Origin: an uncultured Candidatus Saccharibacteria bacterium
Lineage (GTDB): Bacteria; Patescibacteriota; Minisyncoccia; Phycocordibacterales; JACOZG01
Reading direction: 5' to 3'
Length of the DNA stretch: 64,000 nucleotides
Assembly (NCBI GenBank): GCA_964591715.1
Contig: CAZQDR010000003.1
Span: 269-64,268, forward strand
Shown: piece by piece, positions 1 through 63,074 of the stretch
Layout: each line of letters starts with the position of its first letter
Position numbering within the stretch: position 1 is the first letter of the stretch
The notes under the pieces: generated by a model
What the model was told of the DNA's origin: nothing
Database searches by the model: none
The model's input: only the letters and a program-made list of their open reading frames with translations
Translations under genes and position numbers: made by a program

Positions 1-11
1 CGATTTGTTAA

Positions 12-36
12 GAAAAAACCGCCCCAGGGGGCGGCC
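12..36 (-). terminator. rho-independent terminator (hairpin ccgcccc/ggggcgg + U-run on minus strand) downstream of paralog array
   Basis: GC stem 19-25/28-34, plus-strand A-run 13-18 = U-run on minus strand. Confidence 0.5.
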
Positions 37-188
37 TGTCGAGCGACAGAAAGTAGCTCAGCTAAGCCGCCTTTTGGAATGATTCTTTGGTAACATATCG
101 ATACTGGCCATTCTATAGGAAGACTTATCCCCCGTCAAGCGGCGGGATAGCTGCCTGTTTTTAGCTGTTAGCGCCTAGGTTTTAAGCC

Positions 189-773
189 CTATTTTGTGAA
201 CTTGAAGGAACTTAAAATGTTGTCAAAATCTGCATCGTAAGAAAACTGTTGGATTCCCAAAACAATACCCGATTTTTCAAAAGGAATAATTAATTCATTC
301 GAAGAACTCATTCCTGGAATATATTTGTAAAAGCTATAAGCATTGCCGTTTAGTATCTTTTCTACCTTCACTATCGAAGGATAGGACTCATAGGCCTTTT
401 TCACGACACTCCATTGCTGTAGGGAATAGTAATTAACGAAGACCCAACCATTGGTTTGGCCTCCCAAGGAATCACTTGTTATTTTTACACCCCAAACCGG
501 AACATCGTTATTGGTCACTTTTTGCCAACTACTGGGGTAAGTAAAGCTAAACCCAAATTGTTGATTCTGATAAAAGCTTTTACTGTCCGACAAGGAAACC
601 ACCACAGCGGGTTGAATTTGAATATTAGATTTAAGGTAAGTAATAGTTGGGTCAGAAACTTGAGAATTGCTCGTCGGAATTGCATCAACGGGTGTTTCGG
701 CTTTTTTGTTTAACAAGAAAATCCCACCAATAATTAGTGAAAGAACTAAAATGGCGATATGGGATTTTTTCAT
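189..773 (-). CDS. secreted/membrane-anchored protein, paralog family member 1 (N-terminal signal-anchor, YGF.F.YP..W ... FKFTK beta domain)
   Basis: 194 aa ORF; MKK + 20 aa hydrophobic N-terminus; shares FGFSFTYPSSW and C-terminal FKFTK with neighbours. Confidence 0.7.
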   Translation of the reverse strand: MKKSHIAILVLSLIIGGIFLLNKKAETPVDAIPTSNSQVSDPTITYLKSNIQIQPAVVVSLSDSKSFYQNQQFGFSFTYPSSWQKVTNNDVPVWGVKITSDSLGGQTNGWVFVNYYSLQQWSVVKKAYESYPSIVKVEKILNGNAYSFYKYIPGMSSSNELIIPFEKSGIVLGIQQFSYDADFDNILSSFKFTK

Positions 774-774
774 G

Positions 775-1296
775 CTACTTGGTGAACTTGAAGGTGGAGA
801 GAATTCGACGCTCTATCGTAAATGACTCTCCTGTATTACTGAATGCTGAAGTGGAAAAAGTTAGATCAGTTTTGGGATTAGTGGTCAGAGGTATTACTGC
901 TGCGTATGTATCATATCTAAGGTTGTATTCGGGACAACCTTTTTTCTCTTCGACAGTAACCTGTTTTTTATCGATAGTGATCGAGGATGAAACAAAAGAT
1001 GTACAATTACCACCATTTGTCTGACGATAATCGTTGATAATATCTATACTAATTATACGTTGGTCCAGAACAACTTTAACCACTTCGGGCAAAGAATTGT
1101 TTATTTTCCAATCACCGGGGTACTTAAATTCAAATCCATATTTATCATTCTTGTACGTTTTCCAGTCTCCTATCGAAACTTCATTTGTTGTGGTCGCAAC
1201 GGGCGCCACGGCCGTTTTGGATAAAAACGGAACAGCAAAATTAAGTCCAACAATCACAATAACAAGCACAATGAGAGCAGTAATTTGTTTTTTCAT
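775..1296 (-). CDS. secreted protein, paralog family member 2
   Basis: 173 aa; N-terminus MKKQITALIVLVIVIVGLNFAVPFLSKTAVAPVATTT near-identical to next gene; 1 nt spacing to neighbour. Confidence 0.75.
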   Translation of the reverse strand: MKKQITALIVLVIVIVGLNFAVPFLSKTAVAPVATTTNEVSIGDWKTYKNDKYGFEFKYPGDWKINNSLPEVVKVVLDQRIISIDIINDYRQTNGGNCTSFVSSSITIDKKQVTVEEKKGCPEYNLRYDTYAAVIPLTTNPKTDLTFSTSAFSNTGESFTIERRILSTFKFTK

Positions 1297-1297
1297 A

Positions 1298-2320
1298 TTA
1301 TGGTAATTGGCCTGGCTGGCAAGTAATTGTTCGCCCCGTCGGCACGCAGCGATTACTCACACAATCCGCCCCAGAATATTCAACAACTGGATAGGAAATT
1401 GCAACATCACACTGCTGGTTTAAGAAATTTTGGTCCTCTTGAGGATAGTGTCTCCCCTCACAACCCCAGCCCGAATTTATAAATGGATCATACGAATTAT
1501 ACGCTCCGTACCCACAAAAATGATCCCGAACTTGGCAGTCTGACTTTATTTCACAATAACTTGAGTCAGAAACATAGGGAGCTAATTTTGGATTAGCCTT
1601 CGCTAATGTGCCGTCATATTTAGCATTTTCATACTTACCAACTGCCAATTGACCGGAGGGGAAGCTTAGGTAAAATTCTCCCTTAAGTGGTTTGATGTAG
1701 GGGTTACTAACCTTACTTGCGTTGTAGACTAATCCAAAATTATTTACTGAAACGGGAATTTTAAGTAATTCCTTTATCTCATCGAGCTCACCGATAGATT
1801 CATCTTTTAAGACAACTGGAGATTTGGAGCGAACATCAATTACATACAAATCGGTATTTACTACTTGAGGAGAGGCAGTGAACTTGAAGGTCGAGATAAT
1901 ATCAGTTATTTGCTTAGCTAGCGGCAAAACAGAATCGACATAATCCTGAGAGCGAATATAAGAAAACACTAACCCATCCTTTTCAGCAATATATTGAGCG
2001 GGGTTTAATTCCGCTTTTTGAGCGTTAGCCCAATCAGCTTGAGTGGAAACTGAAAGGGTAAACATCCTTGGCTGATCCGAAACACCAAAACTCAGACCCT
2101 TATTATCCGTATTTTGAACTTGATAATTCGACCAACTAGCGGGAAATTTTAATTCAAATCCGTATTGGTCATTCTTATACGTCTTCGAATCCGCCATTGA
2201 AACTTCATCTGTCGTAGTCGTAACTGGCGCCACGGCCGTTTTAGATAAAAACGGAACAGCAAAGTTGAGACCAACAATCACTAGCACTAAAACAACGAGA
2301 GCAATGATTTGTTTTTGCAT
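1298..2320 (-). CDS. secreted protein, paralog family member 3 with extra C-terminal Cys-rich (10 Cys) module
   Basis: ORF 1298..2374; likely start at MQKQIIAL (2320) matching paralog leaders; C-terminal CEIKSDC...CQPGQLP module. Confidence 0.7.
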   Translation of the reverse strand: MQKQIIALVVLVLVIVGLNFAVPFLSKTAVAPVTTTTDEVSMADSKTYKNDQYGFELKFPASWSNYQVQNTDNKGLSFGVSDQPRMFTLSVSTQADWANAQKAELNPAQYIAEKDGLVFSYIRSQDYVDSVLPLAKQITDIISTFKFTASPQVVNTDLYVIDVRSKSPVVLKDESIGELDEIKELLKIPVSVNNFGLVYNASKVSNPYIKPLKGEFYLSFPSGQLAVGKYENAKYDGTLAKANPKLAPYVSDSSYCEIKSDCQVRDHFCGYGAYNSYDPFINSGWGCEGRHYPQEDQNFLNQQCDVAISYPVVEYSGADCVSNRCVPTGRTITCQPGQLP

Positions 2321-2327
2321 ATTATAA

Positions 2328-2765
2328 TTAGTATTTCCACCCAATCTCTGAGGCCTGAAAAATATTTTGACCATTAATATTTACCCATCTACCCTTTATT
2401 TCAAAACCATAATTATCTTTATTTTTAATTTTGTTATCAATTTTTGTCAGACTTTCTGGTTGTTCACAAGAAACATCACAATCGGGATTGTCGGTATACG
2501 AATAAACTCTTGCCTTATCTGCGGAGATAGTATACTGGGCACTCGTTTGCACTTCTACTGCTTCAATGGTTTTTTTACTTAAATCAACACTGATCAACCT
2601 AGCGGGTCGCATCTCAATTTCTTCGTCGAGATTTTTATCGACTACCACCTCGCTTGTTGTCGTTGCAACTGGAGCTACGGCCGTTTTTGGTAAAAATGGA
2701 ACAATGAAATTGAGCCCGACAATGATAATAACGAGCACGATAAAAGCTAAAATGGTCTTTTTCAT
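2328..2765 (-). CDS. secreted protein, paralog family member 4
   Basis: ORF 2328..2783 uses GTG; ATG at MKKTILAF (2765) fits conserved leader; YGFEIKGRW motif. Confidence 0.65.
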   Translation of the reverse strand: MKKTILAFIVLVIIIVGLNFIVPFLPKTAVAPVATTTSEVVVDKNLDEEIEMRPARLISVDLSKKTIEAVEVQTSAQYTISADKARVYSYTDNPDCDVSCEQPESLTKIDNKIKNKDNYGFEIKGRWVNINGQNIFQASEIGWKY

Positions 2766-2779
2766 ATACTTTAACCATA

Positions 2780-2806
2780 CCACAAACCCCTGCCGTACGG
2801 CAGGGG
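2780..2806 (-). terminator. perfect 9-bp palindromic hairpin (cccctgccg ta cggcagggg), probable terminator of upstream membrane protein gene
   Basis: hairpin 2787-2806 followed on minus strand by TTTGTGG. Confidence 0.35.
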
Positions 2807-2871
2807 TTGTTTCAAGTTAAATTATTTGGGGTATATTCCGCCAGAGGCGGACCCGCCGGTGGCGGGCTAGA

Positions 2872-3561
2872 TTAGCGGCGAGCGCCAACTTCGTCGCGCA
2901 ATTTCTCGATATAGCGCGCTGCGGCGTCCCGTCCACCCAAACCGAAGGCCAAGCCACCCGCGAGGGCCAACATGGCAACCAAACCAGTGAAGAGAGTCTG
3001 GAGCAAGACTACGGCTACTCCCAATTGGAGTAAAGCGGCAATCAAAGCGAAGATCCAGATCGCCCACTTGGCGATACCGCCCAAGAACTTAGCCGAAGTG
3101 ATGCCGGCCGCCATGGCGGAACCAGTCACTACGCGCTGGAGGGCATCAGCCAAAACCGCGGCTACCAAGAGAACCAAAGCGGCAACGATTACGTTTGGCA
3201 AGAAGCCAAGCACAATCTGGTGCAAGAAGTCACTGACCTGAACCAGGCCGAGCACCTCGACTGAGGCCAAAAGGAAAACGATGATAATAAACCACTTAAC
3301 CAAACCACCGATGAAAGCCCCGGCATTCAAGCGGAAGCCAGCGCGAGCCAACAGCTCGTCAGTACCAACCTCCTCGAGCGCCTTATCTACCCGGAGTGAC
3401 TTGATTAATTGCTCAACCCAACGGCCCAAAATAGTACCGATCAACCAACCAAAAATAAAGATAACGATCGCTACTAAGAGATTAGGAACGAAGGAGATGA
3501 CGCCGTACCATAAATTCTGGAACGAATTCGTCAAAACCTGGCCCCAAGTTTGTAACAACAT
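2872..3561 (-). CDS. membrane protein with two conserved-TM-helix repeats (MscS-N-terminal-like, PF05552-type)
   Basis: 229 aa, internal repeat FxxNLxxxxxxFxPNxxVAxxxxxxxxL, highly hydrophobic. Confidence 0.55.
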   Translation of the reverse strand: MLLQTWGQVLTNSFQNLWYGVISFVPNLLVAIVIFIFGWLIGTILGRWVEQLIKSLRVDKALEEVGTDELLARAGFRLNAGAFIGGLVKWFIIIVFLLASVEVLGLVQVSDFLHQIVLGFLPNVIVAALVLLVAAVLADALQRVVTGSAMAAGITSAKFLGGIAKWAIWIFALIAALLQLGVAVVLLQTLFTGLVAMLALAGGLAFGLGGRDAAARYIEKLRDEVGARR

Positions 3562-5677: not shown

Positions 5678-6934
5678 TCAAAATATTTCATGCCACAATC
5701 TTTGCCACCACGACGGGTCAGTTGGGAGTTCGACCATGGTCGCAGTGGCCGCCGGCAGTGAGCTTACTGACGGCGGTAAGTCTATTGTAGCAGTTTCTAA
5801 AACGACTGGCACCACTGTCGCTTCATAATCAGGCGATACTGCTACGGGTAGCGCTGGTGGGGCCAGAGATTGGAGTTGCCGCGCGAGCAAGGCGAGCGCG
5901 GCTCCTTGGGTATTCGTTTCCGCATAGACTCGCCCGTTCGGGGCCGCCAGCGACAACTGGTTCGCTACAGTCAAAAAAGGAATTTTAACGGAGCTGGCAC
6001 TATTCAAAATCGTATCTTCCGGCAGGATGATTTTTTTCTTGCTGTCGCCCAACTGCCAATTCCCTACATTTACCTCATAGTTAGAATTATTTTTTAATTC
6101 GACATAGGCTTGATCACCATCATTACCCGCCCTAATAGCTAGGACTGGTTCAACCACCGTAATTACCGTCCGCGCCACCGCCTCGTCACTACCCTGCCGA
6201 ACCGTTGCCACCACGTTATAAGTGCCCGGGAAGGCGTACTGGTGATCAACCACCTCGCGATAGGCGGCGACACCATCACCAAAGCTCCAGTGATACTCAA
6301 TTGGCGCCGCGTCATCAGCACCACTAACCACTGCCCGGAAGGGCAGTCCCGCCCCCACCGCCACTTGCCGCTTGCGACCAATTGATAATCCCAGCCCTAA
6401 TTTCTCCTTCGGATTAGAGAGGGCGACCTGACTTTGATGACTGGAGCTAATACCACCCGAAGTGGCCGTGCTACCAACAACACTTACGGCGGGTTCCTCA
6501 TCTGGGTCCGAGTCGCCGCCCGCGGCCGCGGGCGGCGCGTCCGCGCTCACCGTAATTGGCTGCGAGGTTTGCCAGCTTTGACCACTCGTGCGCCCGGTTA
6601 CCACCACCTTAATGGTATACGAACCGGCCGTGGAATCGCGGTAGAGAAAATTGCGATTGGCCGAATTTTTGCTCATTGTTGTCGTTACCGGATTACCGCT
6701 AGTACTTAAAAATTCGCCCGTCGCTGACGTACTGGTAAAAGTCAGATCAGCCGTCTCGGTAATATTTTCTTTAACTCCCGCATTATTTTGGGTTTGCACG
6801 GTAATCGTCGCCGAACTCGCCCCTGGCGCAATCGTTTGCGGCTCGGTAGTAAAGACCACTCCCGCTACCTCTGCCCGCACCAAAACCGGCAGGAGGAGGA
6901 TGAGTCCCACTGCCATCACGTGTTTGTAGTTCAT
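5678..6934 (-). CDS. secreted protein with PKD domain and lamin-tail (LTD) domain
   Basis: signal peptide; HWSFGDG...YNVVATV PKD hallmark; AYVELKNNSNYEVNVGNWQLGD LTD-like. Confidence 0.7.
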   Translation of the reverse strand: MNYKHVMAVGLILLLPVLVRAEVAGVVFTTEPQTIAPGASSATITVQTQNNAGVKENITETADLTFTSTSATGEFLSTSGNPVTTTMSKNSANRNFLYRDSTAGSYTIKVVVTGRTSGQSWQTSQPITVSADAPPAAAGGDSDPDEEPAVSVVGSTATSGGISSSHQSQVALSNPKEKLGLGLSIGRKRQVAVGAGLPFRAVVSGADDAAPIEYHWSFGDGVAAYREVVDHQYAFPGTYNVVATVRQGSDEAVARTVITVVEPVLAIRAGNDGDQAYVELKNNSNYEVNVGNWQLGDSKKKIILPEDTILNSASSVKIPFLTVANQLSLAAPNGRVYAETNTQGAALALLARQLQSLAPPALPVAVSPDYEATVVPVVLETATIDLPPSVSSLPAATATMVELPTDPSWWQRLWHEIF

Positions 6935-6937
6935 GGT

Positions 6938-7912
6938 TTAGTAACTTATTTGATCAACCAACAGACCGCTCTGGTCATAAAGACTGATTGTCTCGCGCTC
7001 CTTACCCCAGAGCTCATAACCTAAATTGAGATAAATATACCACGACTGACTGTAAAAGTCGCGCTCGCTTCGACTGCGATCCAGGCAAGCAGTATAGCTG
7101 TAATTTTGTTTGAGAAAATCCTTGCAGCGGGATGACAAGTTAGGTGTCTTATCCACAAAACCTGACTGCAATTCACCAGAGGAATCGCGAACTGATCCAA
7201 AAACTGGCGCGTGACAATATCCCAACCGCCTCACAAAGTTGTAACAGTCATCCTCCAGATTATCCACGCCAGCCACCTTGCTTGGCGTTGGGCAACGCGA
7301 GGAAATGGGTGGCGTAAACTGGTAACTAGGCAAATCTTCCAAATAACCGCTACACATATTAACTTTAAAACTAACGTCAATCGGATAAGGTGTCAGCGTG
7401 GGCATCCGACCAGTAATAATGTTGGCGTGATCCCCCCGCTCCAAAACAATGGGCTGCAAAATTTTAGCGGCGCGCGGATCGAAGAGTTTGACTCCGGAAG
7501 GGATGGCAGCGGTCGGGGCCTGATAGGCTACTTTTTGCTTGCTGTTTACCAACTTCCAACCCGTAATCGTTACCGGCTCTTGGGCTCGCGAGGTCAGTCG
7601 AATATACTCCTTCGCTGGCTGGACCTCATTGCGCGCACTGCCTAGAGAAATCTGAACTTGATCATACCAAATCGAGCGAGTCGGATCGCCCGACTTCGAA
7701 CCGGCACTGGAACTATTGGGGGTAACGGCGGAACCGGAGCTCGAGGGATAATTGCTCGGGCGAGCGGATACCCGGCTTTTCGACTCAAGGGGTGACTGGA
7801 TGAACGGCTTCTCTGTCGTTGATCGATTAGGACCACCAGTAAAAAGCCAAATGAAGCCGAGCGCCACAAAAATCCCAATCACCCACAGTAAATCGCGAAC
7901 CGCTTCACTCAT
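6938..7912 (-). CDS. membrane-anchored extracellular protein, LTD-like segment (VTITGWKL) and C-terminal Cys-containing domain
   Basis: 324 aa; N-terminal TM; no family call. Confidence 0.55.
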   Translation of the reverse strand: MSEAVRDLLWVIGIFVALGFIWLFTGGPNRSTTEKPFIQSPLESKSRVSARPSNYPSSSGSAVTPNSSSAGSKSGDPTRSIWYDQVQISLGSARNEVQPAKEYIRLTSRAQEPVTITGWKLVNSKQKVAYQAPTAAIPSGVKLFDPRAAKILQPIVLERGDHANIITGRMPTLTPYPIDVSFKVNMCSGYLEDLPSYQFTPPISSRCPTPSKVAGVDNLEDDCYNFVRRLGYCHAPVFGSVRDSSGELQSGFVDKTPNLSSRCKDFLKQNYSYTACLDRSRSERDFYSQSWYIYLNLGYELWGKERETISLYDQSGLLVDQISY

Positions 7913-7950
7913 AATAAATTATTGTACCATGAGCTGGTTTTTCCGCGCAC

Positions 7951-7981
7951 ACAAAAACACCCCGCCGAGGCGGGGTGTTTT
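7951..7981. terminator. bidirectional-looking terminator hairpin downstream of surface protein gene
   Basis: acaccccgcc gag ggcggggtgt flanked by A5 and T5. Confidence 0.6.
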
Positions 7982-8031
7982 TGATTAGCGATCCGATCAG
8001 CCAAACGCTGACGTCGGAAAGTTAAAGTTAC

Positions 8032-10020
8032 TTACTGAGGCAACGAAACCGTACCAGTTCTCCAGTCGGTCAAACCGGCCATGAAGGTGCTGGTGTTTAC
8101 ATCACTACCATTCAATGACGATTTGATTGCTTCGACACCAACCGCGTATGAGTCGAGGGTCGTAATACCCGCAACACCAGCCGCAGATTTGTCCAAGAAG
8201 GTGAAGGTAACCGGAATAGTTACATCATTACCGTCGGTGATCTTAGCCTTCTGGCCAGTAAGGAGGCCAGTAGTGATCACGCCAGCGTTTGAAGGAATAG
8301 TGAAGTCCGTCGTTGAAGCAACTGGGAAGGCCGTAAGCGTACCACCCTTGTAGATACCTAAGACAAAGGTAGAGGAAGCTGACTGCGTTCCGAGGTAAAC
8401 GTCAGAACCAACCGCCTTAACGTTAACGTTGAACTTGGCAGTAACCGTCGTAGTAGCGCGGCCATTACCATCATTGTTGGTCTCAGCAGTAATCGTAGGC
8501 GAACCAACGATAGTAAACTGAGGACCAGCACTGACAATGTACATCGTGTTACCAGCGGCGCTGCCTGACTTGTCGGTGATTACATCACCAACAGTGTTCT
8601 CAACCGTAACATCGGCATTAGCAACAGAAACGCTAATTGGCGAGGCTACAGAAGTTGCGCGGCGGACATCAGCCTTGATCGTAAGGGTCTTGGTAGAGTC
8701 CTTGGCAATCAAAACATCCAAGTCCGAGAAGGTGGCACGAGTGGTACCAGTCTCAGCACTGTCAATCTCGGTGGAACCGTCGTAGAGATAGATAGTAGTG
8801 GTGGTAGCACCGGCACCAGAAACCGTCGAGCTAGCGAGAGTAACAGTCAAGTCAGTCATGGTCAAATCATCCTTCTTGGCTTTGAGATCAAAGGTCAAGA
8901 GAGACAACTTGTTGTACTCGTTATCATTGCTGCCATCCGTAGCCGCAATCTGGCCAGAGAGAGGGTTGCTGCCACTGGCAGAAACCGTCAATGAAGCAGC
9001 GTCGGTTAGGGAAGAATCAACATTGATAGCACGGCTAACTGAGGAACCCGTAGCTGGGGAGTACTGGTCAATGCCAGCGCCATCCATACCGCGGATACCA
9101 TCATTAGCTAACTGAACCGTGTAAGTCTCGGTGTCAATATCGGTTGAATCGATACTGTCGCGAACGTCAGCCTTGATCGTCAAAATCTTGCTGGAGTTCT
9201 TTGGAACAACCAGGTTGATTCCGGCCAAAGTGATGTAGTAGCGCCCACCATCCTTAACTACCGTTGAGGAGTTAAGATCAGCAGAAGCCAAAACAGTTGA
9301 ACCATCCGTCACATAGACCTTTTGATAGATCTTGTTGTAGATAGCCGTTGAAGCACCGAGGTCTAACTTGACACGCTGGATAGCAATGTCTGAGTTCTTA
9401 GCCTCAACCTTGAAACCAAGGATTGCTGCCATGTCATCTCCTTCGTAAATCGTTGAGTTAACACCGACACTTGAAGAAGTAACAGAAAGCGTACCCTCGA
9501 TACCAGGAGTGGTGATCGTGCCTGTGCAGGAAGCACCCGTAACTGGATTAACTACCCAACCAGCCTGGCAACCAGAAGTGGTGGTCGTAGTGGTGGTCGT
9601 AGTCGTAGTACCACCCATCATCGCGTTGATAGCGGCGCGGGTCTGAGGACCAACCTGACCGACTTGGGCAATGCCCTTAGCGGCCTGGAAGGCTAGAACA
9701 GCGGCCTTGGTCTGTGCACCAAAGTAACCCGTTGGACCAGCTGGAATCGTATAACCATTACCTTGCAAGAAGTTCTGCAAAGCAGTAACTTCAGCGCCCC
9801 TGCTACCTACAGCCAACTGTTGGGTAAGCATTGCTGAACCAGTCGTGCTCGTGTTGCTACCACCCAAAAGAGCGGTCAACGATTGGAGCAAAGCTGGGTT
9901 AGCGGTCAAAGCGGCCATGATCTGATTAGCAGTCAAGGTCTCGGCGCCAGCGATCGAAACCGTCGCGCTCAAGGCCAAGGCTACTACAGCCAAGCCAACA
10001 AATAATTTCTTAATACTCAT
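8032..10020 (-). CDS. large secreted surface protein with N-terminal peptidoglycan-binding domain, Thr11 linker and beta-rich repeats
   Basis: signal peptide; LAVGSRGAEVTALQNFL...GYFGAQTKAAVLAFQ = PG_binding_1-like; T11 run; no SD upstream. Confidence 0.75.
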   Translation of the reverse strand: MSIKKLFVGLAVVALALSATVSIAGAETLTANQIMAALTANPALLQSLTALLGGSNTSTTGSAMLTQQLAVGSRGAEVTALQNFLQGNGYTIPAGPTGYFGAQTKAAVLAFQAAKGIAQVGQVGPQTRAAINAMMGGTTTTTTTTTTTSGCQAGWVVNPVTGASCTGTITTPGIEGTLSVTSSSVGVNSTIYEGDDMAAILGFKVEAKNSDIAIQRVKLDLGASTAIYNKIYQKVYVTDGSTVLASADLNSSTVVKDGGRYYITLAGINLVVPKNSSKILTIKADVRDSIDSTDIDTETYTVQLANDGIRGMDGAGIDQYSPATGSSVSRAINVDSSLTDAASLTVSASGSNPLSGQIAATDGSNDNEYNKLSLLTFDLKAKKDDLTMTDLTVTLASSTVSGAGATTTTIYLYDGSTEIDSAETGTTRATFSDLDVLIAKDSTKTLTIKADVRRATSVASPISVSVANADVTVENTVGDVITDKSGSAAGNTMYIVSAGPQFTIVGSPTITAETNNDGNGRATTTVTAKFNVNVKAVGSDVYLGTQSASSTFVLGIYKGGTLTAFPVASTTDFTIPSNAGVITTGLLTGQKAKITDGNDVTIPVTFTFLDKSAAGVAGITTLDSYAVGVEAIKSSLNGSDVNTSTFMAGLTDWRTGTVSLPQ

Positions 10021-10367
10021 AAATTGTAATAACTAATAAATTTAAACACCAAAACCTGGTGATCCATTTTAGCTTCGACAGTCACTAAAATTTCTCACCA
10101 TTTTCTAAATTTTACTAATCCTTCAAGCTAGCAGCCTAGGCCCTGTTCGACATGGCCCCGCCCACCAGAGAGAAGGTTAATAAACAATGGAACTTAATTA
10201 AGTGGATTTCAGATGAATCGGACATTCAGTAATTATTTAATTTTCAACGTTCCACCAAGACGGAAAAAACTGCCGTATCTGTTTGAGTAATTATAGTATT
10301 AGAGCCCCCCTAGCTGCAAATCCGGTGTGGATAAACCTCTTCAGTGAGGCGCTAATACTGCCTAAGC

Positions 10368-10396
10368 ACTATATACCAAATGACGAGCTAAGTCAA
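10368..10396 (-). promoter_or_regulatory. sigma70-type promoter TTGACT-17-TATAGT driving a ~350 nt leader toward the surface protein gene
   Basis: minus-strand -35 at 10391-10396, -10 at 10368-10373. Confidence 0.45.
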
Positions 10397-10405
10397 CGGC
10401 GATCT

Positions 10406-54549: not shown

Positions 54550-56073
54550 TTATTGCACCACGACCGTTTGGCCCTCATCTAACTCGTAAACCGGCGTCAC
54601 TAAATTAATCGTGTCATTCAATCCAGAAACAACCTCAATAAAGTCGCCTTGGATTTCCCCCAAAATAACCGGGAGACGTTTGATCTTAGAGCTTTGATCG
54701 ACAGTATAAACAAAAGCATCCCCTGGAATAATTTTGACGTTTTGAATCGGTAGCACGTAGGTCACGGGTTTATCTGAGTTTTCGGTAACCGCGGCGGCAC
54801 CCGTAATAATGGCCACACCCACATTTTGGCCGACCACCAATTTAGTATTGGCACTATCTGTAACTGAGATGTTAACCTCCGCTTTTTTAGTGAGGAGATC
54901 AACGCTCGGTGCCACCCCGGAAACCACCCCCTTAGCTGAACCCTGAATCAGCGCTGCTTGGCCGACTTTTATTCGCGAGAGATCATCACCGCTGGCGCGC
55001 GCCTTAATTTGCAAATTAACATTATCGCCCACCACCGTGGCCAACAAGGCACCAGGCAGGGCCAGCTCACCGGGTCGCAAAGGCAAGGAAGCAATCCGCC
55101 CAGTGATCGGCGAAGTAATAACCGTTTTGGCTAGCTGGGCCTGCAGGTTGTTAACCCCGGCCCGGGCGGCGGCCACTCCCGCCGAAGCAGTGGTGTTTTG
55201 CGAAGCATTGCCAGTAGCCAAAGCTGCTCCGGCACCAGTAAGTGCCTGGGCAGCACCACTAACAATGCCTCGAGAAGTGGAGATGGTCGTCTTCCAGCCA
55301 TTAAGTCTCGTCAATTCTGAAGCGGGAGAAGTTTTTGCTGTGTCATTAAGCGCTTGGGAAATGTAACTAAGGAGATTATCAATTACTCCCAAATTTCTTT
55401 CAGATAACTCAACAACCGCCGTGACACTTTCGAGATCAGTGGCAACCGATAGAGAGTTAACCGCAATTTTCCATTCTACTAAATCAGTTCGCAAATCCAG
55501 CCAGGTGTCTAAGATGTTTGTTTTTAATTTGCTGTCGCCAATCATCGATTCTAGTCTTCCACCAGTACCATCATTGTTATATAAAATTGGCTCAAGCTGA
55601 GAGTTAACAATGTCGTAACCTTTAACATAGGCGTCGCGGATTTTATCAATCGCCCCCTGCTTAGCCGACTCGACCGACACTGAACCGGTGTACTGCTGGC
55701 CTTCGGCCACCGCGAGTCCCGCTTGAGCCTGGGCCAACTGAGCCCGAATGTCCGCGTTAGTAAGTTCCATAATTACTTGGCCAGCATAGACAGTATCCCC
55801 AACCGCCACATTAACCGTCGCCACCGGTGCCGATAATTGGCTCTTTAAATCAGCCTGAGATAACGACTCCACCACGCCATTGGCGGCCACGTTCAGATTA
55901 CCTCGACGAAAAGTGCCAGCATTTACTAAGGTAACTTTGGTGGGGGCAACATTGACCTCGGTCGCCGGCCGACTCAATAGCGCTCGGCCACCAATGATGG
56001 CCACCATTACCACAATCACTCCAATCACCGACGCCGCCGCCACATGTTGGCGAAGATAAGAAAATTTATTCAT
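54550..56073 (-). CDS. RND efflux periplasmic adaptor (membrane fusion protein)
   Basis: 507 aa; N-terminal TM, coiled-coil, beta-barrel. Confidence 0.8.
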   Translation of the reverse strand: MNKFSYLRQHVAAASVIGVIVVMVAIIGGRALLSRPATEVNVAPTKVTLVNAGTFRRGNLNVAANGVVESLSQADLKSQLSAPVATVNVAVGDTVYAGQVIMELTNADIRAQLAQAQAGLAVAEGQQYTGSVSVESAKQGAIDKIRDAYVKGYDIVNSQLEPILYNNDGTGGRLESMIGDSKLKTNILDTWLDLRTDLVEWKIAVNSLSVATDLESVTAVVELSERNLGVIDNLLSYISQALNDTAKTSPASELTRLNGWKTTISTSRGIVSGAAQALTGAGAALATGNASQNTTASAGVAAARAGVNNLQAQLAKTVITSPITGRIASLPLRPGELALPGALLATVVGDNVNLQIKARASGDDLSRIKVGQAALIQGSAKGVVSGVAPSVDLLTKKAEVNISVTDSANTKLVVGQNVGVAIITGAAAVTENSDKPVTYVLPIQNVKIIPGDAFVYTVDQSSKIKRLPVILGEIQGDFIEVVSGLNDTINLVTPVYELDEGQTVVVQ

Positions 56074-56100
56074 AAATCGGATATTACACCAGAACTCGTT

Positions 56101-57204
56101 CTAGGGCAACTCGTCAACAATTTTATCTTTCCGAGGCAAGCTGAAGTAGAATGACGAGCCCTTGCCCTTCTTACTTTCCAGCCACATTTTTCCTTTATGG
56201 GCCACCACTATTTGCTTGGCCACATATAAACCCAAGCCAATACCTTCGATCTTGAGATTAATCGCCCCCGTAGTCCGATAAAAGCGCCCGAAAATTTCAG
56301 GCTGTTCCGCCTCTGCAATACCCAACCCAAAATCTTTGACCGAGACCACAATGTTGTCCACCTTATCGACACCCTTAACAATCACCTCATCAGCACCGGG
56401 AGAATATTTGATAGCATTCGTTAGAAGATTGACCAAAACTTGAGCCAGTCTGTCTCGATCACCGTATACCTTCTCAGCAATTTTACCCTCGTGGAGAATC
56501 GTGTGCTTTTTGGTGACCATCTGAATCGTCCCAATTGTCTCCTCGATAAGAATATTCATATCAAAGAATTTCTTTTTCAATTGCAATCTCCCCTTCTGAA
56601 TCTTACCGACATCTAAAAGATAATCCATCAGCGTTACGATCTTATCTACTTGTTTATTTAAATCAACAACTGATTGGATATGAGCTTCATTATTAGATCG
56701 CCTAGTTTCCGCTTCGACAATTTCTCCGTACAGTTTCAGACTCGTAACCGGAGATTTAAGTTCGTGGGTGGCAGTGCTAATGAAAGAGTCCTTTCTTTTT
56801 TCAAACTCCGCCTTCTCGCTTAAGTCGCGCACAATAAAAGTAAAGCCTTGCGCGGCCGCCTTCTCATCATTTAAAGCAAAAATCAATCCACTAGCCCAAA
56901 ACTGCGTACCATCTTTGCGTAGATGATGACGTTCAATAACCACCTTGCCTTTGGCGACAGCCGCCAAAAGTTCTTTCCTTAGTTTGTGGCTATCAACATC
57001 TTCCTTGCGAAAAATAATCGACGCATTTTTACCCAGAACTTCAGGCTCTTTATAGCCAAATAGCTTTTGGGCTCCGCCATTCCAGCTGTTGATATGGCCC
57101 CTCCTGTCGGTCGTGAAAATCGCGTATCCAGTAAGACTCTCTACGAGCAAGCGGTAAAAATTATCATCTACCCGAAAACCTTCATGTTTGATTGGTTTTT
57201 TCAA
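56101..57204 (-). CDS. cytoplasmic PAS-domain sensor histidine kinase (orphan)
   Basis: PAS then HisKA H-box (ATHELKSP) then HATPase_c. Confidence 0.85.
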   Translation of the reverse strand: MKKPIKHEGFRVDDNFYRLLVESLTGYAIFTTDRRGHINSWNGGAQKLFGYKEPEVLGKNASIIFRKEDVDSHKLRKELLAAVAKGKVVIERHHLRKDGTQFWASGLIFALNDEKAAAQGFTFIVRDLSEKAEFEKRKDSFISTATHELKSPVTSLKLYGEIVEAETRRSNNEAHIQSVVDLNKQVDKIVTLMDYLLDVGKIQKGRLQLKKKFFDMNILIEETIGTIQMVTKKHTILHEGKIAEKVYGDRDRLAQVLVNLLTNAIKYSPGADEVIVKGVDKVDNIVVSVKDFGLGIAEAEQPEIFGRFYRTTGAINLKIEGIGLGLYVAKQIVVAHKGKMWLESKKGKGSSFYFSLPRKDKIVDELP

Positions 57205-61962: not shown

Positions 61963-62343
61963 TCAGTCCGGCAGAGCTTCGTTATCAAGCTTGATCGCCA
62001 GAGCTAGAAGAACTAACGCATTTCTGACTCTCAAACTACGACCGCCACCGATCATCGTTCGAAAGCGCAAAACCGGTCCGCGGTGCTGGTCGGTGCTTAA
62101 CCAAGCATCACCATCCCGAGTAAACCCGACAATCATCCGTCCTTCCCGCGTGCCATCATGATCATCGTGCAATCTCAAGTATTGCTCATCCACCGATAAT
62201 CCGGTTGGCCAAAAAGGATTGTTCAGCACCCGCAACGCATCTTTGTTCAGTCTTTCGCTGGAGGGTTCCACATTGATCTCCTTATATTTAACCAAGCTCC
62301 CCTCTTCCTCTTTAAAACTACTGCGTTTAGAAGATAGGGTCAA
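61963..62343 (-). CDS. hypothetical protein
   Basis: 126 aa ORF, no family call. Confidence 0.4.
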   Translation of the reverse strand: MTLSSKRSSFKEEEGSLVKYKEINVEPSSERLNKDALRVLNNPFWPTGLSVDEQYLRLHDDHDGTREGRMIVGFTRDGDAWLSTDQHRGPVLRFRTMIGGGRSLRVRNALVLLALAIKLDNEALPD

Positions 62344-62344
62344 A

Positions 62345-62839
62345 TCATTTCCTTGCTCGATATATTTTTAACTTACTGTACTCTTTATCCTCTTCTGACT
62401 CTAACACTAACTCTGGCTCTAGATTAAACACTGGAACACCTTCTACCACTTCAACTGGCACGACATTAAAAATAACCTTGTCGATCAAACCAAGCTTATA
62501 AAAATCAGTATTTAAAGTCGGGCCACTTGATAATAAAATCTTTTTCCCTTGCTCTACCGCCTCTTCTGGCGACCCCACTTTTACATAGCCAAGCTTAGGA
62601 ACGAATTCCTCATTCTTGCTTACGACGACTTTTTTAATTTTAAGCTCTCCAAAACTTCTAACTAAACCTGGTTCATATGATTGAATCACTTCATACGTCC
62701 TTCGGCCCATTACCACGACATCGCACTGACGGCACAAGTTTAAAAAATCACTCCATAGCTCGTCGGGTATAAAATCCTCCGAGTCATCTAATCGAGAAAT
62801 AAACCCATCGGCCGAAATGGCGTTATATAGAGTTACCAT
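62345..62839 (-). CDS. RibD C-terminal domain / dihydrofolate-reductase-like family protein
   Basis: 164 aa; LYNAISADGFI...VVVMGRRTYE pattern. Confidence 0.6.
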   Translation of the reverse strand: MVTLYNAISADGFISRLDDSEDFIPDELWSDFLNLCRQCDVVVMGRRTYEVIQSYEPGLVRSFGELKIKKVVVSKNEEFVPKLGYVKVGSPEEAVEQGKKILLSSGPTLNTDFYKLGLIDKVIFNVVPVEVVEGVPVFNLEPELVLESEEDKEYSKLKIYRARK

Positions 62840-62892
62840 CCCTAAAGTATAGCAGACCAGCTTTCTCCATACCCACCTGGAAAAAAGTGTAC

Positions 62893-62917
62893 TGAGAAGT
62901 CGTTTTGGTTTTAGGTG
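62893..62917. repeat. 25-nt direct repeat copy A (tgagaagtcgttttggttttRggtg), partner at 63943-63967 abutting a tRNA 3' end
   Basis: 24/25 identity. Confidence 0.7.
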
Positions 62918-63074
62918 AGGTCGTAGAGGATGTTAGAACTATATTTGAGAAAAGGAATGATGCGACGATCTACATTCCTGATTTATACCCTACCCCAGCA
63001 CGTCAAAACTAGAACCGATTTTACAGCTCAAAGAAAACCGCCCTCTAACGGTTTTCGTTAGTGGGCGGTGGTGG

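Follow-up and report, generated by a model that had tools for sequence, protein, structure and literature searches.

Genes at the locus

The window, that is, the whole stretch of 64,000 nucleotides that was analysed, contains close to its start a compact block of four open reading frames (ORFs), designated A to D:

Positions 2328-2765, minus strand: gene A, ORF of 145 aa; family leader and orphan ectodomain, with a DNYGFEIK motif in the tail
Positions 1298-2320, minus strand: gene B, ORF of 340 aa; leader, short PsbP-like module and C-terminal extension of 191 residues
Positions 775-1296, minus strand: gene C, ORF of 173 aa; leader and one PsbP-like module
Positions 189-773, minus strand: gene D, ORF of 194 aa; diverged leader and one PsbP-like module

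The four genes are co-directional and make up the whole content of the block, with spacers of 7 nt (A/B), 1 nt (B/C) and 1 nt (C/D). This confirmed four tandem ORFs with gaps of 1-7 nt, as described in an earlier note on this DNA, and placed all of them on the minus strand. The further proposal of an operon of paralogs was supported by the sequence, with co-transcription being probable. A-D are thus supported as tandem paralogous envelope proteins with divergent ectodomains and one N-terminal export/anchor sequence in common, and a surface-protein family duplicated in tandem is the best reading of the array. The B-C-D and A-B junctions were 100% identical in contigs from other samples (L001-L003 and L089), with the independent contig L089 spanning the A-B junction at 100% identity over 1031 nt. 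An assembly chimera was therefore ruled out.

The leader is a probable membrane anchor

Each protein has one hydrophobic segment of 21-23 residues and no usable AxA site, because Pro is present at +1 or -3. The structure model predicted a transmembrane (TM) helix at residues 2-25 with a pLDDT above 90. These features make a membrane anchor more likely than the secretion assumed in the earlier note. Judged by eye, the leader is most likely an uncleaved signal-anchor (N-in, C-out) rather than a cleaved signal peptide, and not a pilin or lipoprotein signal. The class III signal of type IV pilins consists of a short basic leader with G at -1, F/M at +1 and E at +5. The leaders read MKKQITALIVLVIVIVGLNFAVPFL and contain neither the G|F(T/S)LxE motif nor a Glu in the hydrophobic segment, which argues against pilin-like proteins. 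Cys, and with it a lipobox, is absent from all four leaders. Relatives of the array proteins are tethered too, by TM anchors or, in some relatives from other genomes, by lipoboxes; tethering is a family trait. In each protein the hydrophobic helix would be followed by a linker rich in Thr/Ala/Pro/Val.

B, C and D contain a PsbP-like module

The following module features were located:

Positions 1874-2191, minus strand: PsbP-like module of B, residues 44-149; module HMM positions 1-125; P0003 is 37% identical there
Positions 778-1167, minus strand: PsbP-like module of C, one module
Positions 192-587, minus strand: PsbP-like module of D; module HMM positions 1-126
Positions 196-218, with copies at 782-804 and 1878-1900, minus strand: 3' end motif (…S[ST]FKFT…, TTC-AAG-TTC-AC), repeat family D3

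The module starts with YGFxFxYP..W and ends with ILSTFKFT in B, C and D. The YGFxFxYP...FKFT domain noted previously is therefore present in these three proteins and absent from A. Against PF18933 (PsbP_2), C scored 24.8, B 19.8 and D 14.0 bits, each below the gathering cut-off of 27 bits (a whole-protein score), and A had no match. Membership was established by homology to matching proteins: PF18933 was matched at E<=0.01 by 40 of 49 aligned homologues (best E 5.6e-13), and a precomputed PF18933 domain is present in many of the sequences matched by the module profile. Using hhalign and family profiles built without the window sequences, B was matched with a probability of 99.1% (residues 5-67) and D with 98.4% at the YGFxFxYP motif. 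The family profile and cyanobacterial PsbP (2xb3) could be aligned end to end at an E value of 0.009, indicating a PsbP/Mog1 fold, the support for B and D consisting of the terminal motifs only. Unrelated folds among the paralogs, considered earlier as a possible outcome, were not found for B, C and D, which form one fold family; A is not demonstrably in the same fold.

By these profile comparisons, the module of B, C and D belongs to a very large, uncharacterised PsbP_2-related family with the PsbP/Mog1 fold. The module profile produced at least 1273 matches, and at E<=1e-3 the family comprises 3818 cluster representatives, many of them containing 2-14 modules. The labels of 76 genome loci of the family are mostly Patescibacteria lineages. 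Near-invariant are the first strands (W-K-T-Y-x-N-x-x-Y-G-F-E-F-K-Y-P-x-x-W) and the last helix and strand (I-L-S-T-F-K-F-T), and the alignments showed the core between these ends to be hypervariable in sequence and length. The module of B (106 residues) has a much shorter core. Family members neighbour mostly housekeeping genes (L9, CTP synthase) and a few cell-wall hydrolases, and one subfamily lies between L9 and CTP synthase, an arrangement that is conserved. Thus, a housekeeping role in the envelope fits as well as host recognition. We found nothing relevant in the literature on PF18933 or PsbP-like proteins in CPR. We also considered whether the 3' motif encoding FKF is constrained in its nucleotides across the family and rejected this, as other genomes mostly use TTT-AAA-TTT, following background codon usage.

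The extension of B and the ectodomain of A

Gene B had been described as encoding a knottin-like module with 10 Cys. The relevant feature is:

Positions 1319-1555, minus strand: Cys-rich part of the C-terminal extension of B, residues 256-334, 8 Cys

The count is 8, all within residues 256-334. Knottins contain six Cys that form a knot within about 30-50 residues; here 8 Cys are spread over 79 residues without a family match, and a knottin assignment is not supported. The region had no Pfam or NCBIfam match and no homologues. The short motifs YCxxxSDC and NRC[VL]P of the extension also occur in a Cys-rich tail in L032. A single-sequence structure model of B reached a pLDDT of 34, too low for use.

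A search for homologues of A among 5.8 billion proteins returned only A itself, and no profile matched it beyond the TM helix. Against the module HMM, A scored a weak 8.4 bits, equalled in 1 of 500 shuffles, with the matching pieces in the wrong order; the module-start motif DNYGFEIK lies 21 residues before the stop codon. The ectodomain of A is an orphan and possibly degenerate, as judged from its sequence.

The leaders are similar but probably old

The three alignable leaders are:

Positions 2649-2765, minus strand: codons 1-39 of A (leader); 67-74% identical to the leaders of B and C at the nt level
Positions 2204-2320, minus strand: codons 1-39 of B (leader); 84% identical to the leader of C at the nt level, with dS 0.56
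Positions 1180-1296, minus strand: codons 1-39 of C (leader); serves as the reference for repeat D1

A, B and C have the leader MKKxIxALIVLVIVIVGLNFAVPFLSKTAVAPVATTT in common (28-33 of 39 residues identical), and the leader of D is far more diverged and barely alignable. The ~85% DNA identity attributed to genes 2-4 applies in register to C-B (84/99 nt), but not to C-A (74/99) or B-A (68/99). The pair given as an example, 1198-1296 and 2220-2318, was 2 nt out of register (33/99 identical); the correct partner of 1198-1296 is 2222-2320. A repeat search recovered three copies of a 121-nt direct repeat, those of B and A being 84% and 75% identical to that of C, the reference. It also returned a 194-nt repeat of 81% identity between C and B. 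A 38-nt leader pattern occurred twice in the window, with 0 occurrences expected by chance. There were no extra leader copies elsewhere in the 64-kb window or in JGI metagenome scans by a 26-nt flank pattern or by leader alignment, and the protein databases contained a sole further copy, P0002.

We compared synonymous codon choice at conserved residues with the expectation from codon bias. B-C had identical codons at 22 of 33 residues versus 12.1 expected (p=0.0002), and both proteins also exceeded the prediction when paired with P0002 (p<=0.001 for all three pairs). In contrast, A-B showed no excess (p=0.20) and A-C a marginal one only (p=0.02). The concern that leader similarity might not rise above codon-bias background thus applies to A and not to B/C, the only pair among the array genes with DNA-level similarity beyond amino-acid constraint. 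The leader dS was ~0.56 for B-C and saturated for A, exceeding the dS of orthologous flanking genes of two strains (0.05-0.39); dN across the leader comparisons was 0.09-0.22, and for the leader of A pS was 0.63-0.75 versus a pN of 0.13-0.19. These values argue against the recent gene conversion or recent duplication proposed in the earlier note. Instead, the array would stem from an old tandem duplication, and purifying selection on the protein would preserve the leader, with the extra DNA-level likeness confined to B and C.

The block is a strain-variable hotspot

Comparison with the sister strain L004 delimited the block by the following features:

Positions 2766-2845, minus strand: conserved 5' region before gene A; 78/80 nt identical to L004, up to the ATG
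Positions 2785-2808, minus strand: 24-nt GC-rich palindrome, 100% identical in L004; resembles a terminator of the upstream channel gene
Positions 16-37, minus strand: intrinsic-terminator-like hairpin and T-run after gene D, from a terminator scan

The window neighbours of the array are a channel-like protein, L7/L12, L10 and the 23S rRNA, the block being located between the mechanosensitive-channel-like gene and the 23S rRNA gene. The latter starts ~170 nt beyond window position 1, as located in L001 and L004, and an Rfam search of the region downstream of D found nothing besides its 5' end. L004 has the same neighbours, with L10, L7/L12, a 189-aa gene and the channel gene 92.5-98.8% identical at the nucleotide level, and carries a single 227-aa family gene (P0002) in place of the four genes of the window. 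Identity resumes at window position 208, 18-20 nt before the last stop codon. The variable segment thus begins at the first ATG and ends where the last 18 nt of gene D begin. Two alleles were found at this site, and the block is a strain-variable hotspot. The coding part would be an old, deeply divergent allele, set between the same 5' UTR and the same last 18 nt and terminator as in L004.

The block also differs in base composition, with a GC content of 37-41% and a GC3 of 0.33-0.37 versus 0.47-0.65 in all remaining genes of the window, including those for other surface proteins (the PKD and LTD genes). The GC3 of the sister allele is similarly low (0.33). In a first comparison, family GC3 was below that of the neighbours in 56 of 61 loci. 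A stricter recomputation on 56 loci gave a Wilcoxon p of 2e-10, with family GC3 tracking host GC3 at a slope of 0.6. Low GC3 is a family-wide trait, suggesting evolution within the genomes rather than derivation from one low-GC donor pool.

Alternative explanations

Low GC and GC3, together with the completely different content of the site in a close relative, would also be expected if the block were foreign DNA, transferred horizontally from a lower-GC donor and inserted beside the rRNA gene. We consider this unlikely, as low GC3 follows the host across the family and is just as low in the sister allele, which has the same 5' UTR and 3' end. Moreover, the block consists of the four genes alone, none matching a phage or defence-system family; searches of PHROGs and of PADLOC, a library covering phage defence only, returned nothing significant. 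Repeats are absent at the block borders, and a tRNA is absent from the whole window. Somewhat less improbable is partial decay of the array, in which A and perhaps the extension of B would be functionless remnants of broken modules. The lack of any homologue of A and the weak, out-of-order module similarity of A, with DNYGFEIK near the stop codon, are what such a remnant of a module might look like. However, the pN and pS of the leader of A indicate purifying selection, and its ORF is unbroken in AT-rich DNA and does not differ between two independent samples, so that decay remains a rather unlikely reading.

Leader DNA could be kept alike while the cargo diverges if gene conversion were ongoing or recent, or if the duplication were very recent. 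The codon excess among B, C and P0002 is in line with this, as is the abrupt loss of alignable sequence after the first 194 nt, which are 81% identical. All four modules also end in TTC-AAG-TTC-AC despite the preference of the island for TTT and AAA, and a run of C-like sites in the leader of the sister strain hints at mosaicism. Yet recent gene conversion was rejected on the dS and codon tests: leader dS lies above the between-strain flank dS, and amino-acid conservation accounts for the leader similarity of A. The drop in identity coincides with the boundary at which the constrained part of the protein (anchor, first strands) gives way to the unconstrained part, and this boundary is also visible across unrelated genomes. 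We therefore regard this explanation as a whole as improbable. The least probable alternative, and very unlikely in our view, is that the array encodes immunity proteins against envelope-targeting toxins. The immunity proteins Tsi3, TplEi and Tli4 share the fold and occur as diversified tandem copies, and the array genes are likewise tandem, strain-variable and membrane-tethered. However, no toxin, effector or secretion-system gene is adjacent here, and no toxin or secretion-system families appeared among the matches listed for genes adjoining family members (best 25 Pfam families, 61 loci on each side). PADLOC gave no match from its phage-defence library. Many relatives are multi-module (up to 14), which is not an immunity-protein architecture and also sets them apart from Tsi3, TplEi and the Tli4_C-domain protein (PDB 7wdk), and one subfamily has the conserved L9-CTP synthase synteny.

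Interpretation and comparison with known systems

The block is thus likely to represent a strain-variable tandem array of four anchored extracytoplasmic proteins, three of them with the PsbP/Mog1 fold, which arose by old duplication and would have a surface-binding role. The host bacterium probably belongs to the Patescibacteria (CPR). The membrane-tethered modules would be displayed on the cell surface as binding modules, their variable faces recognising envelope, host or environmental ligands. Recombination and/or frequency-dependent selection would maintain the diversity between strains. A diversity-generating retroelement was not detected: positions 1-3000 contain no repeats other than the leaders and the 3' motif, and no reverse-transcriptase family was present among the matches listed (best 25, window Pfam and NCBIfam surveys).

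The modules have the same ends as PF18933 and PsbP (PDB 2xb3, 2lnj), the first strand reading YG[FY]EFxYPxxW and the last I[LV]S[ST]F. They differ in the below-threshold scores of B, C and D, in their much more variable core and in being membrane-tethered and arranged as tandem genes or tandem repeats; there is no photosystem gene among the scanned window genes. The mycobacterial PsbP-fold envelope proteins and lipoproteins LpqN, Mtc28 and Apa have no detectable sequence similarity to the array proteins, which are anchored by a TM helix rather than through a lipobox and have no link to an MmpL-type transporter here. At the level of the locus, the block resembles the 'metagenomic islands', variable hotspots for surface proteins in free-living and host-associated bacteria, in its conserved flanks, sharply bounded strain-different segment, surface-exposed products and AT-richness. 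In contrast to those islands, only two alleles are known here, and glycosyltransferase and phage-receptor genes are not involved.

Patescibacteria are tiny, mostly uncultured bacteria, many of which are attached to other cells; to our knowledge, their surface display is largely unknown. The locus belongs to a member-rich family with thousands of sequence clusters that behaves like a variable surface-protein system, and two genomes that are near-identical otherwise carry completely different genes at the site. It is a real yet fairly ordinary variable surface-protein site and adds no new mechanism. New here are the hotspot position, the sister allele with one different family gene, the segment bounds and the family-wide low GC3. 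Being tethered, tandem and strain-different, with conserved ends and hypervariable cores, the family is a reasonable candidate for studies of host or phage interaction. A bolder view, which we hold to be doubtful, is that the PsbP_2-like module is the main variable surface-recognition scaffold of Patescibacteria and that such loci are cassette sites at which segments are exchanged under selection by host or phage. Whole coding segments would then recombine at the leader/5' UTR and at the ILSTFKFT-coding 3' end. The invariant end strands, hypervariable core and AT-rich coding sequence would fit such a scaffold role.

Gene array and its surroundings

The island lies at window positions 189-2783 on the minus strand and comprises four ORFs, transcribed in the order A, B, C, D with intergenic spacings of 7, 1 and 1 nt (A/B, B/C and C/D).

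2328-2765, minus strand: gene A, ORF of 145 aa
1298-2320, minus strand: gene B, ORF of 340 aa
775-1296, minus strand: gene C, ORF of 173 aa
189-773, minus strand: gene D, ORF of 194 aa
2785-2808: GC-rich palindrome of 24 nt, upstream of A
37-16, minus strand: terminator-like hairpin with T-run, downstream of D

The C and D proteins were identical in L001-L003, all from other assemblies. L001 matched window 1-2006 with 100% DNA identity, and L089, a Logan contig from a different sample, matched window 1991-3021 with 100% identity, spanning the A-B junction. These matches rule out an assembly artefact. Contigs reaching past the window edge placed the start of the 23S rRNA ~170 nt beyond window position 1 on the same strand. 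Note that the 23S rRNA gene (L001 2164-2247; L004, the sister-strain contig, 7677-9416) has protein-coding genes ahead of it rather than a 16S gene or tRNA, and the rRNA genes therefore appear unlinked in the source organism.

A shared leader, probably a membrane anchor, under purifying selection

The sequence MKKxIxALIVLVIVIVGLNFAVPFLSKTAVAPVATTT is common to A, B and C (28-33 of 39 residues identical), while the leader of D shows only loose likeness to it. Nucleotide identity in register was 84/99 for C-B, 74/99 for C-A and 68/99 for B-A; between C and B, 81% identity continued over 194 nt, into the first strands of the domain. We compared same-codon use at conserved residues with the expectation from the amino acids and island codon usage. 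B and C used the same codon at 22 of 33 conserved residues (12.1 expected, p=0.0002); the excess was marginal for A-C (p=0.02), and for A-B identical codons did not exceed expectation (p=0.20). Thus, of the DNA-conserved leader proposed in the earlier note, the sharing among A, B and C stood and the DNA-level excess applied to B-C, but not to A-B. The correct coordinates of the B stretch in this comparison are 2222-2320; those first assigned (2220-2318) are shifted out of register by 2 nt.

Over the first 39 codons (Nei-Gojobori), dS was 0.56 for B-C, 1.35 for A-C and saturated for A-B, with dN of 0.09-0.22. The leader is therefore kept by purifying selection acting on the peptide. The duplicates are old, with B and C the youngest pair, and there was no sign of recent homogenisation of the leaders.

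Each of the four proteins carries one strongly hydrophobic N-terminal segment of ~21-23 residues after MKK. Nearby small-x-small sites all have Pro at +1 or -3, the A-D leaders contain neither a lipobox Cys nor a pilin-type signal, and the model of C has a helix at residues 2-25 (pLDDT above 90). Sequence and model suggest that the segment is an uncleaved signal-anchor, and we infer that the proteins are seated in the membrane with the module facing outside. Gene order and the shared anchor are established.

A PsbP-like module in B, C and D

Following a linker, B, C and D contain a module that starts with W/S-K-T-Y-K-N-D-x-Y-G-F-E-F-K-Y-P-x-x-W and ends with I-L-S-T-F-K-F-T. The first motif scored 24.8 (C), 19.8 (B) and 14.0 bits (D) against Pfam PsbP_2 (PF18933), all below the cut-off of 27. 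A profile built from 12 modules matched at least 1273 proteins; for many of these a PF18933 domain had been precomputed, and PF18933 was matched by 40 of 49 aligned homologues. The family profile aligned end to end with cyanobacterial PsbP (2xb3; E 0.009). Against a profile lacking window sequences, B and D reached probabilities of 99.1% and 98.4%, over the first motif only. The fold family of C is thereby established, as is the membership of B and D at motif level.

The final F-K-F is encoded by TTC-AAG-TTC in all four modules of the lineage: those of D, C and B (window 196-218, 782-804 and 1878-1900, respectively) and of P0002, a sister-strain protein (L004 7323-7342). Island codon preference is the opposite (TTT 39:14; AAA 57:25), and other genomes mostly use TTT-AAA-TTT. 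This could weakly point to a short conversion tract or recombination junction, spanning only 11-14 nt.

Gene A had no homologues but itself and no profile matches outside the TM helix. It shows a weak, out-of-order likeness to the module, including DNYGFEIK near the C-terminal end. It ends in ...NKDNYGFEIKGRW plus 18 residues (window 2328-2400), which places a module start motif 21 residues ahead of the stop codon and just upstream of the B leader. This suggests that A derives from a truncation or rearrangement.

The 10-Cys module reported earlier contains 8 Cys by our count (residues 256-334), within a 191-residue C-terminal extension of B for which no homologues were found. Small Cys-rich units occur in many relatives, for example as CPDGSxVGRxGPNCEFAxCP N-terminal to the module or as tails after it (L074 1-4466; P0031; L032 2517-3320; L030 5830-6477). 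The extension of B may be one further add-on of this type.

The family at large

A phmmer search of 1.84 billion cluster representatives with gene C gave 3818 matches at E<=1e-3, many with 2-14 matched stretches, and the module is therefore often repeated within one protein. We collected 76 loci from species-representative genomes, mostly labelled Patescibacteria (Saccharibacteria, Paceibacterota, Doudnabacteria, Parcubacteria and others). In all of them both module ends are near-invariant, with a core that is hypervariable in both sequence and length. Relatives use TM anchors or lipoboxes as tethers, and tandem family genes occur elsewhere too (e.g. L073, L074, L041); the 64-kb window holds no further member besides the array. 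Paralogues within a genome often have their own near-identical leader, of TM or lipoprotein type, and different modules, while leaders differ between genomes (L014 3779-6456; L029 2784-6474; L080 4086-6369). Thus, the combination of the same leader with different cargo is a general habit of this PsbP_2-like family.

Family neighbours (61 loci per side) are mostly housekeeping genes, with ribosomal protein L9 upstream in 9/61 loci and CTP synthase downstream in 8/61; cell-wall hydrolases and FtsX account for a few (M23 4, CHAP 2, FtsX 2). One subfamily keeps conserved synteny between L9 and CTP synthase in several Patescibacteria lineages (L017, L019, L020, L028, L038, L046, L086, L088 and others), a possible sign that this subfamily has a housekeeping role in the envelope.

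A strain-variable hotspot

The same neighbourhood was found on L004 (JGI) and several Logan contigs. Between the channel-like gene and 23S, these L004-type contigs carry one gene, encoding P0002 (227 aa), versus four in the window; only these two alleles were found.

Flanking genes, window versus L004-type contigs
L10: 98.8% nt identity, dS 0.054
L7/L12: 96.5% nt identity, dS 0.154
189-aa protein: 92.5% nt identity, dS 0.39
Channel-like protein: 97.5% nt identity, dS 0.107, proteins identical

Between window and L004, 78 of the 80 nt leading up to the first ATG are identical. Identity falls to ~71% within the leader, the module core is unalignable, and from 18-20 nt ahead of the last stop codon and beyond it the two sequences are again 97.6% identical. 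These comparisons establish both the hotspot and its limits. Over the first 39 codons, the P0002 leader is 83% and 81% identical in nucleotides to those of B and C (dS 0.47 and 0.69), whereas dS to A, its positional counterpart, is saturated. This makes the coding segment an old and deeply diverged allele set in young flanks, not a vertically inherited orthologue. Just past the end of the channel-like coding sequence, the window has a 26-nt GC-rich hairpin-forming insertion (2846-2871) that is missing from L004.

Base composition

The island has a GC content of 37-41% and a GC3 of 0.33-0.37 (0.33 in the sister allele on L004), versus a GC3 of 0.47-0.65 in all other window genes, among them those for the PKD, LTD and Thr-rich surface proteins close by. 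Lower-GC patches also occur at window 10001-10400, 56001-57000 and 62001-63000 (0.38-0.43 vs ~0.50). In a first pass, family genes had lower GC3 than their neighbours at 56 of 61 loci; stricter recomputation on 56 loci (L013-L088 set) gave means of 0.353 and 0.474 (Wilcoxon p 2e-10). Family GC3 follows host GC3 with a slope of 0.6, and the gap widens with host GC3. The pattern could stem from mutational drift in rapidly evolving genes or from a common gene pool. Its host-tracking, family-wide nature speaks against one low-GC donor pool and for rapid evolution towards AT under weak constraint, with horizontal exchange as a possible contributor.

Interpretation of the locus

The A-D locus belongs to a known, uncharacterised kind, the PsbP_2-like envelope proteins; two further features are notable, the allelic replacement with its sharp bounds and the AT-richness across the family. 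The initial description of secreted paralogues with a conserved leader and diversified ectodomains holds in part, both as observation and as interpretation. In our proposal, the invariant terminal strands would form a scaffold and the variable core a putative binding face, and strain-level diversity may be kept by recombination and/or frequency-dependent selection.

Other explanations are less well supported. Recent gene conversion is difficult to reconcile with leader divergence that reaches saturation in dS, and arrival of the genes as a foreign island with a low GC3 that is shared family-wide and tracks the host. Neither toxin nor mobility families were seen next to family genes among the best 25 families listed, and the lack of toxin families speaks against an immunity-protein array. 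Partial decay of the array is likewise less well supported.

The PKD-/LTD-domain surface proteins (window 5678-7912 vs L004 1571-3772) are 78-80% identical in nucleotides and 79-83% in amino acids, whereas adjoining housekeeping genes are 96-99% identical; fast surface-protein divergence is therefore general in the lineage. Synteny with the sister strain stops at ~window 7929 (window ~7929-10020 compared with L004 1-1564). Here window 8032-10020 encodes a secreted, Thr-rich protein of 662 aa whose N-terminus is peptidoglycan-binding-like, and the counterpart position on L004 a 332-aa Beta-lactamase2-domain protein. The region from ~window 7929 may thus be a second variable site.
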